A stretch of DNA of 64,000 nt from Octopus vulgaris (taxonomy: Eukaryota): the NCBI GenBank assembly GCA_951406725.2, contig OX597829.1, positions 54,870,001 to 54,934,000 of the forward strand. The letters run 5' to 3'. Below, one piece after another: positions 13,576-61,085 of this stretch. The translations under genes were made by a program, and so were the position numbers. The notes beneath the pieces are model-generated. The model had not been told where the DNA came from. It saw only the letters and a program-made list of their open reading frames with translations, and did no database searches. The stretch's first letter is position 1. Each line of letters starts with the position of its first letter.

Positions 13576-13738
13576 AAAACCATTAGATTCACTTCAACAT
13601 TTAAATTTAATTTGTCAAAATATTTTCATCACTTTCAGACCACAACCTGTTCACTGACAAAATTCTGTGCTGCATCTCAAAGCGAAGAAAATATTTTGAC
13701 AAATAAAATTTAAATGTTGAAATGAATCTAACGGTTTT
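13576..13738. repeat. Inverted repeat with arms of about 60 nt
   Basis: aaaaccattagattcacttcaacatttaaatttaatttgtcaaaatattttc... pairs with ...gaaaatattttgacaaataaaatttaaatgttgaaatgaatctaacggtttt. Confidence 0.9.
13611..13661 (-). ncRNA. Degenerate hammerhead-like fold, G3-C8 core variant
   Basis: Minus strand reads TTTGTCA-GTGAACA-g-GTTGT(ggtctgaaa)GTGAT-GAAA-ATAT-TT-TGACAAA: 7-bp stem I and palindromic loop III, but stem II is mostly G-U and there is one extra G after A9. Confidence 0.4.
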
Positions 13739-13880
13739 TGTGTGTTTTTAAACGGCTTATAAACACCTTCCACACTGCACTGCAATTGCTTTTGTTTCAG
13801 CACACATTCTCAGATCAGGTCACTTGCTTTAAAGAGGAATCTACCTCCTCACAAAACCTCATATATATATATATATATAT

Positions 13881-15490
13881 CATCTTCATCGATTAACATC
13901 AGTTTTCCATGCTGGCATGTGTTGAACGGTTTGATTGAGGTCTGAAGAGCCAAAGGCTGCACCAGGCTCAAATCTGGTTTAGCAGAGTTTCACAGCAGGA
14001 TGCCCTTTCTAACACCAACCACTCTGAGTGTGTAGTGGGTGCTTTTTATGTGCCACTGGCACAGGAGCCAGTCAGGCGGACCTGGCATCAACCATTTTTG
14101 GATGGTGCTTTTTATGTGCCAGTGGTATGGGAGCCAGTCAGGGGGCACCAGCTCCAGCTACATTATTGGTTTCACTTGACTCAGCAGGTCTTCTCAAGCA
14201 TATCATATTGCTTGATGCATCAGGATTATTCTTAACAGGGCTGGACGTGCAAGGCTGCGATCTCACTTTAGTTACCGGGTCTTCTCATTCACACTGTATC
14301 TCCAAAGATTCCAGTCTCCTGTCATTGCCTCTGTGAGGCCCAATGTTCAAAGGTCATGCTTCACCACCTCATCCCATGTTTTCCTGGGTCTACCTCTTCC
14401 ACAGGTTCCTTATACAGTTAGGGAGTAGCACTTCCTTACACAGCTGTCTTCATTCATATGTAACAAATGGCCATACCAGCACAGTTGTCTCTCTTGCACA
14501 CCTCATTTGATGCTTCTTATGCCCAACTTTTCTCTCAGGGTGCTTACATTCTGTCTTGTATGCACACTGATGTTACACATCCAGCGGATCATACTAGCTT
14601 CATTTCTTTCAATCCTACACATGTCCTCAGCAGTCATGGCCCATGTTTCACTTCCATGTAGCATGGCTGTTCACACACAGACATCATACAGTCTACCTTT
14701 TACCCTGAGTGAGAGGCCCTTAGTTGCCAGCAGAGGTAGGAGCACCCTGAATTTTACCCAGGCTATTATTACTCTATTCACTCTCAGAGCAACCACCCCC
14801 ATTACAGACTTGGTCGCTTAGGTAGCAGAAGCTATTAACTACTATTAGTTTTTCCCCCTGACATGTGATGGAATCTGTTTTCGGTACATCTTCAGTATTT
14901 ATTGCCCCAGTGCATCTGCCACACACAAAAACTATTTTCCCAGTTAACCTTTCTTTGATATTGCTGCACCTTTTGTGTCCATAGCTTACACTGGGTACAT
15001 TGTATGGAGTTTCTACCCACACTTTTTCTACAGATCGAGCAGAGCCATCTACTTGAAGAGAGTTGTGATTTGACAGCCTTCCTACTTACTAAGACTTTAG
15101 TTTTTGCTAGGCTAAATCTAAGGCCCTTCGATTCTAGACCTTGCTTCCACACCCTAAACTTTGTCTCCAGTTCTGGCAGTGACTCAGCTATTAGAGCAAG
15201 GTTTCCAGCAAAGAGGAGCTCCCAGGGGCAGCCTGTCTTGAATTCCTTTGTTATTGTCTGGAGTACTATGATGAATAAGAGGGGGCTGAGGACTGATCCT
15301 TAGTGAACCCCAACTTCTACTCAGAATTGTTCACTATACTCACTTCCCACCCTCACCTTACTGACAGCATCCCTGTACAGGGCTTGTGCAGCTCTTACCA
15401 GCCACTCATCTATTTCTAGTTTCCACATTGACCACCAGATGAGGGATCGGGGACCCTGTTAAAGGCTTTCTCCAAGTCAACAAAAGCCAA
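13881..15490 (-). mobile_element. RTE-clade LINE 3' fragment
   Basis: WKQGLESKGLRFSLAKTKVLVS, FCYLSDQ; 3' tail next to (TA)n at about 13880. Confidence 0.88.
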
Positions 15491-17499
15491 GCACAAAAGT
15501 TTATATATATATATATGTTTGCCTGTATGTAAACACAAATATATATATATATGTATGCCTGTATGTATACACAAATCCACATATAAAACCAAAATAAGAG
15601 GACAAAGAAAAAGCTTAGCACATCTTTACAGCAATCATGCTGGAGCACCACCTTTAGTAGAGCAATCAGCCCCAGAACTTATTCTCTGTATGTGTAGTAC
15701 TTATTCTATCGGTCTTTTTTGCCAAACCATTAAGTTACAGGGAAGTAAACACACCAGCATCAGTTGTCGAGCAATGTTGGCGGTGGTGGACAAACACAGA
15801 CACACAAACTTATAGACATGTATATATATATATATATATATATATATATATATATATATATATATATATACACATGATAAACTTCTTTCAGTTTCCATCT
15901 TCCAAATCCACTCACAAAGCTTTGGTTGGCCTGAGGCTAAGTGCCCTGCAGCAGGACTGAACCCGGAACCATGTGGTTGGTAAGCAAGCTACTTACCACA
16001 TAGCCACTCCTGAAAGAGTAAGCTAGTGTTAAGCTCGTGTTGAATGCTGTCTTCCTACTCTTCCAGGACTTCAGGGTGTGTGTGTATGATGAAATGATAA
16101 TGATAAGATATATCACATCTCTACTGTGTCTCAAATAATATCATGAACTAAGAACGTTTTCCATTCAGTCAAGAGAGGAAAAAGACAAACTTAGAATTCA
16201 TTTCTCACCCATGTGTTTCTGAACTATAGTTCCAGTTGAGCATCAAATGTACGTTGGAGAAAGAATAGGGTGAGAAATAGAAGTCCCTTAGAGGAGAAAT
16301 GGTATACAGTTCTTAACCCATGGTATGAGACATTAGATATATAGTGACTCCCATCCGTGCCACCCACCTAGGTGAAAGAGGGGTAAAAGTGAAAAAAGAA
16401 AGACAGAGAGGATTGAAATCACATTCTGCATGACATGAACTCAATTATTTTAAAATATGAATGTTGGAAACGATAGGATCCTCGCAGTGTTTATGATTAT
16501 GATGACCTTTATTAACATTTTCATTAGCATGCAACCATCATCATCATCGTTAATGTAATTACAAAATTTGTCTGCTTGAAAGTGCTTGTAATGCATTATC
16601 AAATTCCTTTGGTGAATGAAGGTCTGAAAAGAACATTTACTTCCCAGGAATTGACGACGGGATAGTACGAAACAAAAAATAAATAGAACTATCTTTCTAC
16701 TGTCTAGGAATAAGCTGTCTTTCGAAATCGCATATTTTTACGGGAAATATGAGGGCCGAAGTTGGGGGAAATGAAGGGAAAAAAACCCTGTAATTTTGGG
16801 GAAAATTTTGTTATTTATTTTTATTTATTTATTTTCAGAATCGTAATTTCCGTTGTTTGAAACACCAGAATACTTTTTTTTTTTAAAGAATCAAAAAAAC
16901 CACCCTTTTCCTTTCCTATGGGTTTATAAGGACTTCGATGGTAAACTATTCCAAAACTCCGCCATATAATGAACATTAGAATGTTAGTATTCTTCAGAAT
17001 TTAATCGAACTTAATAATTAGATTCTGCTTATAATTATCCAGAATAATATTTAGACAATAAAGTCATAATAACACTAAAAACAACAAAAAGCTTGAATTG
17101 CGAAATAAATTTTTATTCTGTAATATAACTTAGCTATTATATTAATTATTTGCTCTAAAGCTGCTAAACGCTTCTAGATTATTTATAAAACATAAAAACA
17201 TAGTCCAACAATATATTCAACAATAATTCCCTTCTCATTTTGGAATTGTTGATGCCTAAAAGAAAAGGTTAGCTTTTACGCTTTCTCAGTCCATCTCTTG
17301 TTGTCAGGTTATTGTGGGAGGGGTCAATGGGTCCATGGCTGTTTTAGTTTCGCACTCCTTTATTTCAGTCGGTGAACACAGAATAAAGCACCACAATTAG
17401 AGTAAGTAGGATACGGAAATCATATCGAATATGTTCCACGTGTAAACATCTAAATTAAGCTATTTCATTTCATTTTTGTACCTAATTTATTCAGGAAAG

Positions 17500-17707
17500 C
17501 AGCAACATCTATAATTGACCATTTTGCACACTCTTATGCTGATGTGAAAAAGAAATATTTAAATTTCAAATGAGAAGCTAAAACGAATTACGGAGGAAGA
17601 GCTGACAAGGAAGCCGACTGCATCGTCATAGTGAGTGTCACTCGAGGTTGGAGTATAAGTAAAGGAGAGTCACTCATGATTGATGGTAATTTGAGTCAGA
17701 TATAATA
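17500..17707 (+). promoter_or_regulatory. Putative SMARCB1 promoter and 5' UTR
   Basis: Immediately upstream of the ATG, repeat-free, with more CpG retained than in surrounding introns. The transcription start cannot be placed. Confidence 0.4.
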
Positions 17708-59770: not shown

Positions 59771-60192
59771 CATGCTCACATGGATCGGATGGAACCTGTT
59801 GATGTGTATTTTCTATGGCTTAATGCCACCAGCCCTCACTTGTTTCCAAGTTAAATAAGATTTCCTTCTGGCCAGACATGTTTTTAAGAAGGATTGGAAA
59901 CAAAGGATACCATTTGCATGACAGTGACACTCACTCGCAACTATCAAGTGAGGTTAAAGCAAGGAGACAATGACACACACACGCACACACATGCATGCAT
60001 GCACACACACACACACACTGGGCCTCTTTCAGTTTCCATCTGCCAAATCCACTCACAGGGCTTTTGATGGCCCAAGGCAATAGTAGAAGGCACCTGCCCA
60101 AGTGGAACTGAACCTGGAACCATGTGGCTAAGAAGCAAACTTCTTACCACACAGCCATGCCTACCTATGAGTATAAATGAAATGTCACTTAC

Positions 60193-60450
60193 ATTACAGC
60201 TGTGGTTGATGAAACGTGCCAGGTTGCCTGCTTTTGTTGCATCAATGATTGTTTCGTTATCAACTCGGAATAAATAGCTACTGCCAATACCCTGTGCACC
60301 ATATTGTTTCTCACGTTCATCAGCAACAAAATGTCGGATTACTTGTCCAACATATTCAATAACCATTTCTTCAGCGGCAATGGGTTCCAGGGCAAATAAG
60401 CCCCAATCATGGATTGAGCTTTTAGCAAACCTTAATTGCTTTTTGCGAAA
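60193..60450 (-). CDS. SETD1: SETD1/Set1 histone H3K4 methyltransferase, SET-domain exon (gene continues beyond the window end)
   Basis: Minus-strand tttacag|[89 protein letters not shown]; donor AAT|gtaagt; 258 nt. These motifs are diagnostic of SETD1A/B. Confidence 0.96.
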
Positions 60451-60559
60451 CTGTAAAAATGAAAAAAATTTTTATTATTAAACCATGTCAATGTACAGGT
60501 TATAAAAATTTTAGTACAATACACTAACGTTAACTAATATATATATACATATATGTATA

Positions 60560-61085
60560 CTTCCAAGAGAGTTAGAGGTTGTGAATCCAACCAACTAAGG
60601 GATAATATCCAATATACTGCTGGAAGAATACCCAATTATTAATACACAAGTGTTTTTTATTGCATGGTAATTACACTACTGAATGTAATAAATGGGTGAG
60701 GGTAAAAAGTTGTTTTACCCTTAATTTATACAGCAATAAGAAAATGGAGGGGATCAAGAGGTGGTGTTCATCAACTTTTAGACATTATATTATGTCAATT
60801 CATTTATTTTTAAAAAAAAACAATTATAATAATATACATACATGTAAAACATATTATGCTTTACATATATGATATATAAAAATATCAGAAATTATTAAAA
60901 TATATAACTTAGAGCATAGAAAATAGGATAATTTCTTACAGCTGTTTCAGCCAAGAGGTCATAGTAACCCCACCTTACTTCCATCCCTTAAGTGAACTGA
61001 AGTATTTGGTAGATAAAAGGTATATGGGCGTGCCTCTGGGCTTCGTCAGAGATTTTAGAAAGTTCATAAGGTTAAGTTATAAATA
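60560..61085 (-). mobile_element. Probable Penelope-like terminal-repeat fragment in a SETD1 intron
   Basis: Block between TA-rich microsatellites containing a hammerhead; boundaries approximate. Confidence 0.45.
60930..61056 (-). ncRNA. Type I hammerhead ribozyme in a SETD1 intron, sense orientation
   Basis: Minus strand reads TCT-CTGACGA-AGCCCAGAGG...74 nt...CCTCTTGGCT-GAAA-CAGCTG-TA-AGA. Core intact, stem II 9 of 10 bp, palindromic helix III, GUA site; stem I is weak (3 bp plus a possible extension). Confidence 0.72.

Follow-up and report, generated by a model that had tools for sequence, protein, structure and literature searches.

Hammerhead motifs with exchanged 3:8 pairs in Penelope-type retroelement families of Octopus vulgaris

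Results

Four type I hammerhead motifs in one octopus window

The stretch analysed here, hereafter the window, comprises 64,000 nucleotides of the 2.8 Gb Octopus vulgaris genome (contig OX597829.1, positions 54,870,001 to 54,934,000, forward strand). It is repeat-rich with many TA tracts, and contains four hammerhead ribozyme motifs, labelled A (50662, plus strand), B (61049, minus strand), C (42264, plus strand) and D (13654, minus strand). A sequence-only reading of the window had described them as unrelated, each beside a (TA)n tract, and had taken the variation of their catalytic 3:8 pair as a sign of selection. Their cores, GAAA segments, palindromes and cleavage triplets all lie where that reading had placed them.

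Hammerhead A (50655..50737, plus strand) has a C3-G8 core (CUGAGGA, 50662-50668), GAAA at 50719-50722, a helix I of 7 base pairs (bp), a 4-bp helix II with a long loop, and C17 at 50730, after which the cut is predicted. Hammerhead B (60934..61052, minus strand) is also C3-G8 (CUGACGA, 61049-61043; GAAA, 60948-60945), with a 3-bp helix I, a 4-bp helix II that starts with A-U, and A17 at 60937. Hammerhead C (42257..42296, plus strand) is U3-A8 (UUGAAAA, 42264-42270; GAAA, 42280-42283), with helices I and II of 7 and 2 bp and C17 at 42289; its inverted copy (42179..42218, minus strand) has U3 at 42211 and a palindrome decayed to CTGG. Finally, hammerhead D (13611..13661, minus strand) is G3-C8 (GUGAACA, 13654-13648), with an extra G at position 9.1, GAAA at 13627-13624, a 7-bp helix I and U17 at 13618. 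Its 5-bp helix II has suffered CpG decay and relies on G-U pairs, whereas that of young D copies does not. Helix III is short and self-complementary in all four (CAATTG in A, CAGCTG in B, CCGG in C, ATAT in D), and computed homodimer pairing of these palindromes is complete.

The descriptor used required type I order and Watson-Crick pairing of positions 3 and 8 in N3UGANN8A ... GAAA ... UH. All four window motifs and the majorities of their families conform to it, so that core and 3:8 pairing hold at the level of family consensus. In its strict form, without a bulge, the descriptor recovers A, B and C and misses D (shuffle mean 0.12, 100 shuffles). It was loosened to allow an optional nucleotide at 9.1, as the hammerheads of Penelope-like elements (PLEs) carry, and the shuffle control was repeated. 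A to D then became the four best-scoring matches in the window, and 300 local dinucleotide shuffles gave on average 0.06-0.16 matches, with 0/300 reaching four; the shuffled sequence does not give such folds equally often. A literal CUGANGA search misses C and D, as had been anticipated, and an Rfam scan of the window had no hammerhead family among its 57 matches at E<=10. About 20 more Watson-Crick-paired motifs of non-target families occur in the 1.37 Mb of fetched loci (by eye, overlapping loci counted), and the count of four in this window, though high, is unremarkable. At least 10 further hammerhead motifs, mostly C3-G8, were seen at L058, L066, L072, L082, L085, L154, L159, L207, L261, L298 and L390, with palindromes CATATG, CTGCAG, CGATCG, CTCGAG, CACGTG, CTAG, TATA and CG.

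Each motif belongs to a large repeat family: first-look genome candidates numbered 1278 for A, 812 for B, 1692 for C, and 2813 and 1622 for D, 40 of each being scored. Against a background of 7.5% in loci, (TA)n was found at the ends of 44/48 young D copies, 9/39 old D copies and 21/24 A copies; for C it was 33/33, using a looser 115-nucleotide (nt) window. The association with (TA)n thus holds for A, C and D. For B it does not, since the neighbouring TA tract is part of the element's own low-complexity 5' region and the 3' end (~60659) is not in TA.

Hammerheads C and D lie in PLE pseudo-long terminal repeats

Families C and D both show the layout of PLEs: pseudo-long terminal repeats (pseudo-LTRs), 5' truncation, an inverted 5' copy and an optional tail, together with one open reading frame (ORF) combining a PLE-type reverse transcriptase (RT) with, at its C terminus, a GIY-YIG endonuclease that has two cysteines between GIY and YIG; for C this ORF is known from fragments. 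Their motifs are located in the pseudo-LTR. Hence the linked ORFs that the sequence-only reading had proposed to look for exist for C and D, none having been found for A or B, and "unrelated" describes the four elements at the DNA level only.

The D insertion (13576..13861) consists of a minus-strand pseudo-LTR fragment (13677-13576) following an inverted, 5'-truncated copy with a tail, which spans 13681 to ~13860 and ends in (TA)n. This is an old, decayed copy, 82-84% identical to a young subfamily. The family columns restore the full motif, with a 7-bp helix I, GUGAACA, the extra G, GTCGC/GCGAC, GAAA, ATAT and UU. From 193 anchored copies, 44 were excluded in which truncation or inversion sets in ahead of the core or inside it; among the remaining 149, in a set partly ascertained with the core in the query, G3-C8 is present in 135, the others showing scattered single changes. 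Frequent non-CpG disruptive changes fall in 13/109 unstructured and 0/42 structured columns (Fisher p=0.02, in a post hoc test counted by eye on loci partly ascertained on the core). Between young and old D, loop II has changed and the core and helices have not.

Walking upstream from D led to a decayed RT and GIY-YIG element (L283). A short non-autonomous unit was considered for D and rejected, since longer copies lead to the ORF. A protein search reached the young subfamily, in which the intact G3-C8 motif was found within the fetched flank in 19/30 loci identified by protein alone; six young copies compared are 97-98% identical to the reference. In this subfamily, L319 has an 839-amino-acid (aa) open frame followed ~1.0 kb after its stop by the G3-C8 motif. 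RT motifs were recognised by eye in this frame, which matches a Pfam-positive protein of another family, F, in BLASTP (E=8e-11); Pfam itself gave no match on the D ORF. At L352 the ORF begins 91 nt after G3. The motif therefore sits just upstream of the ORF start, and as in other PLEs it follows a branch-point/3' splice-site-like stretch: ~22 nt before the core are a branch-point-like ACTAAC, a pyrimidine run and YAG (L319:6400-6442, L221-L250). Many D copies have their 5' end directly after this stretch, a clustering that may suggest splicing and recalls the Drosophila Penelope intron that ends at helix I (described in the consulted part of PMC4209133). No spliced form and no informative joint was seen in contig-level runs, presumed to be RNA, that cover A and D. 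The 3' ends cluster at ~+120 and ~+180, inside the ORF start. D-like sequence is also present in runs under four organism codes, a record of presence only.

The C insertion (42021..42414) comprises two 5'-truncated pseudo-LTR ends back to back between TA tracts, a minus-strand copy with a ~40-nt tail and a plus-strand copy without one. In its predicted fold the insertion forms a single long hairpin, with the motif buried inside. Identity among C copies, which are variably 5'-truncated, is 93-99%; the longest extend 5' into RT thumb, a CxxxxCxxC linker and GIY-YIG, as fragments only. The GIY-YIG match (E=0.003) is under the curated cut-off, and the endonuclease region is 50% identical to that of F. 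Family F itself has many 781-aa frames and is another U3-A8 family.

No linked ORF was found for families A and B

The window copy of A (50545..50893, plus strand) is a single, 5'-truncated copy of a 535-bp unit, with (TA)n (50894-50923) at its end. Scored genomic copies are 98-99% identical and elsewhere form head-to-tail arrays of 2-5 with 535-bp spacing on several contigs, as well as inverted pairs. The unit is retrozyme-like, with no ORF and one type I hammerhead per unit, whose loop II of ~40 nt contains its own predicted stem. No ORF linked to A was found in the loci examined, and no sequence is shared beyond the tandem unit among 30 loci.

The B copy (60659..61264, minus strand) is 82% identical to locus L084, B copies being 87-91% identical. 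The family continues ~1.3 kb upstream as low-complexity non-coding DNA. No autonomous partner was found: 0/20 of the longest loci had a linked ORF, and tblastn with six PLE proteins against 20 B loci matched only unrelated opposite-strand insertions. Likewise, A, B and D queries against 70 GIY-YIG loci revealed no pseudo-LTR link. A and B likely derive from PLE-type elements. Their 8-bp helix III resembles that of the Hydra-clade motifs in File S2 of PMC8557442, and a Hydra element may be their mobilising partner.

The 3:8 pair is exchanged on both sides between related families

The four window copies are not alignable and alone cannot show covariation, so the argument from covariation to selection does not follow from the window as originally put. 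It is supported by relatives outside it, E for D and I for C. Family E (L345, L346; G000:C19:14371000-14380999) is a young PLE that occurs as 4587-bp tandems and has a frame of 1311 aa; over 815 aa it shares 54% identity with D. D and E are set apart from the other endonucleases at 100/100 in the tree. The E motif lies at the same position as that of D and shares G9.1 and U17, but its core is C3-G8. Helix II carries a compensatory G-C/A-U change (GTCAC/GTGAC in E, GTCGC/GCGAC in D), and helix III is non-palindromic (GAAC).

Family I (L171, L377-L396, for example G000:C1:5966248-5966280) was first seen downstream of a GIY-YIG ORF at L171. Its pseudo-LTR hammerhead has A3-U8 on the scaffold of C, with GC/GC helix II, CCGG and C17. 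A search pattern unconstrained at positions 3 and 8 had 148 exact matches, against 0 for the reversed control; among 100 matches listed, 99 are A3-U8 and one is G3.U8. The cognate endonuclease, 64% identical to that of C, lies upstream of the motif in 10/20 fetched loci (nine places). One helix I pair varies within the family as G-C 12, A-U 6, A.C 3 and G-U 0.

Thus, between relatives, both sides of the pair have changed, G-C/C-G in D/E and U-A/A-U in C/I, and every one of the four Watson-Crick combinations at 3:8 is found in this genome (in A, B, C and D plus I). In addition, U4, G5, A6, G12, A13, A14 and a non-G residue at 17 are kept in A to D and in I. Amplified Neptune-like families with altered cores were also seen, at L186, L187 and L207 (family G, U4C), L172 (J, A13C) and L196 (K, U3.G8).

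Discussion

A proposed model of dimer cleavage and reinsertion

As the sequence-only reading had it, A to D look like minimal type I hammerheads of TA-targeting, PLE-type retroelement families. We consider it likely, with a probability of about 0.7, that their 3:8 pair is held by selection for a fold that cuts as a dimer. This reading builds on comparisons of motifs, copy families and ORF linkage, and cleavage is its prediction. In a monomer, helix III would be too weak. Within a tandem transcript, two motifs would pair their palindromes and exchange helix I arms to form a strand-swapped dimer, which would cut the transcript at position 17, probably with help of the element's protein. Cleavage would release unit-length RNA, for A possibly a 535-nt circle, and the PLE RT would copy the released RNA into nicked TA tracts. 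The window copies themselves, solitary (A, B) or hairpin-locked (C, D), are probably inert.

Published work on related motifs bears on this scheme; the sources below are cited for the parts consulted. Minimal PLE hammerheads, palindromic helix III, dimer cleavage, U3-A8 and (TA)n targets have all been described (PMC4209133, PMC3088659, PMC8557442), and such motifs cut poorly and as dimers (PMC4209133, PMC6765202). The Anolis Poseidon PLE PAc (Frangieh et al. 2024, PMC11167929) has a hammerhead that cleaved only in the presence of protein, and in which the C3G/G8C double mutant partly rescued cleavage. Positions 3 and 8 pair in the active tertiary fold and not in the secondary structure; G3-C8 works better with G17 than with C17 (PMC3884650). 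After that work, the U17 of D would weaken a G3-17 mispair. Pairwise mutagenesis of the CUGA region found the G:C swap to be the only strong rescue (PMC9901934).

Several observations weigh against the proposed selection. Cores are altered in families that have nevertheless amplified: E has C9 in 33/33 copies, G is degenerate (U4C in 7/13), J has A13C in 3/3 and K has U3.G8 in 3/3. No motif was recognised in the fetched 3' flank of the endonuclease families H, M, N and O. An intact core is therefore not required for the spread of every family. Because only the G:C swap gave rescue in PMC9901934, A3-U8 may be near inactive. The predicted minimum-energy folds of the monomers differ from the hammerhead fold, the palindrome duplex of D is very weak (-0.2 kcal/mol), and the D counts carry the ascertainment noted above. 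The endonuclease tree leaves C, I, N and P unresolved, so that C and I are not resolved as sisters. Finally, in the consulted part of PMC11167929, insertion of PAc in vitro did not depend on cleavage, and none of the RNA-seq reads had its end at the site.

Alternative explanations

In a different explanation, selection does not act on cleavage: the hammerhead-shaped RNA is retained for a structural or protein-binding role, or is a slowly decaying passenger of the pseudo-LTR, and the 3:8 swaps reflect either the stability of the fold or drift among a few master copies. The degenerate cores and the dispensable cleavage of the lizard element fit such a view. So do the Naiads, which thrive without canonical hammerheads, the suggestion by the same authors that hammerheads parasitise PLEs (PMC8557442, in the part consulted), and the conservation of the sequence on either side of the D motif, which nearly equals that of the motif itself. 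However, since the 3:8 pair is tertiary only (PMC3884650), two separate double-transversion swaps that keep Watson-Crick pairing are hard to obtain from selection on secondary structure or from drift, and the residues retained in A to D and I also speak against it. We regard this explanation as unlikely, although it is the strongest competitor. A chance origin of the motifs, and of D in particular, through folding of AT-rich repeat sequence can practically be dismissed. The failure of window D with the strict descriptor, the silence of Rfam and the monomer folds could be read that way, but beyond the shuffles it is refuted by the family alignments and the position in ORF-linked pseudo-LTRs: the D motif lies just upstream of an ORF start, is intact in young copies and is homologous to the C3-G8 motif of E.

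The palindromes had been proposed to act as family-specific dimerisation codes, which would prevent cross-cutting between co-resident families. Mixed pairs of A, B, C and D have <=4 in-register helix III pairs against 6-8 in homodimers, their duplex energies are much weaker (except relative to the weak homodimer of D), and at least 10 different palindromes occur in the genome. Yet CCGG is common to C, I and J, CATG is common to F and a second family, and E has no palindrome. Because helix I forms across partners in the dimer, family specificity would depend on both helix I and the palindrome, and C x I has 0-1 helix I pairs despite matching palindromes. The variety of palindromes can be put down to divergence alone, since copies in tandem pair in cis. 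A palindrome code is thus improbable, and the proposal is not supported in its original form. Selection for the dimer-cutting fold remains the reading we prefer. A bolder extension of it is that octopus PLE lineages have repeatedly flipped the 3:8 pair and that all four Watson-Crick versions, among them G3-C8 and A3-U8, which are not known other than as laboratory mutants, work in naturally amplifying retroelements, for which we would give slightly less than even odds. If true, it would be natural proof that catalysis by PLE hammerheads is under selection, and would imply that the weaker cores are compensated by the element's protein or by changes nearby, for example a U17 that keeps G3 from mispairing with C17.

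Relation to known elements

The octopus motifs share with the metazoan PLE hammerheads described in the consulted part of PMC4209133 the type I order, short helix I, palindromic helix III, a frequent 9.1 base and G10.1-C11.1, as well as the pseudo-LTR location, many divergent families per genome and opposite-strand pairs. As in PAc, the D hammerhead lies at the pseudo-LTR/ORF junction of an element with AT-rich targets. The two RT start sites of PAc inside the ORF start make its tail (PMC11167929), and the D ends at ~+120/+180 are as this predicts. Unlike the Poseidon element PAc, D is Nematis-like and C Neptune-like: by eye against the alignments printed in PMC8557442, the linker is of the long Neptune type in C, I and F and of the short Nematis type in D and E. 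The octopus families and the Neptune, Nematis and Hydra clades (Craig et al. 2021, PMC8557442) also have in common their (TA)n targets, their tails and the presence of truncated copies in inverted orientation.

Family A resembles non-LTR retrozymes, which in the parts consulted of PMC7229834 and bioRxiv 10.64898/2026.07.22.740005 are ORF-less head-to-tail units with one type I hammerhead each, from monomers to multimers. Its 535-bp unit exceeds the 170-400 nt of the former and is inside the 51-972 bp of the latter. Unlike in those retrozymes, loop II of A is long and its insertions are inverted and truncated in the manner of PLEs; A is known here from DNA alone.

As for the 3:8 pair, the U3-A8 variant is known from Schistosoma Cercyon elements (PMC4209133), and C3-G8 covaries to U3-A8 in nature (Perreault et al. 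2011, PMC3088659). In contrast, 0/56 rows of Fig. S3 in PMC4209133, which includes no cephalopod, carry G3-C8 or A3-U8; all 34/34 rows of File S2 in PMC8557442 are C3-G8; and the core-variation section of PMC3088659 mentions neither G3-C8 nor A3-U8. G3-C8, an engineered mutant in PAc, thus appears as the natural state of an amplifying family in D. No report of natural G3-C8 or A3-U8 was found in the literature searched, and prior description cannot be excluded. An octopus repeat annotation lists active Penelope families and, in the part consulted, does not mention ribozymes (PMC13282606). What the present comparison adds is, at sequence level, true covariation from the relatives E and I, which completes the four Watson-Crick 3:8 pairs.

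Whether PLEs keep weak hammerheads for transcript processing or carry them as passengers is an open question in the consulted parts of PMC8557442 and PMC11167929. If the active fold is selected, one would expect comparison to reveal a tertiary pair in which both sides have been swapped between related families that amplified recently. D versus E and C versus I are matched natural pairs for it, having young copies and ORFs that are wholly or partly open. These families escape both Rfam and descriptors based on CUGANGA, so the number of hammerheads in animal genomes is underestimated.

Additional features of the window

On the same strand as element B, which lies just 5' of the first of them, are the last exons of a SET-domain gene (60450-60200 and 58759 to ~58580, minus strand; Pfam SET, E=1.5e-14), presumably Set1/SETD1-like. 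Decayed mariner transposase copies occupy 49449-50312 and 44652-45189, both on the minus strand, with Pfam Transposase_1 and HTH_48 on the first. Fragments of a repeated long interspersed nuclear element with endonuclease- and RT-like frames, which we take to be RTE-like, are found at 14250-15430, 37400-41960 and 61475-63160. A near-perfect 115-bp palindrome at 22378-22492 has weak scores against several microRNA models and is either similar to a miniature inverted-repeat transposable element or an inverted PLE end. A 93-bp tandem repeat (2262-2588) has 3.5 copies with 95% matches.

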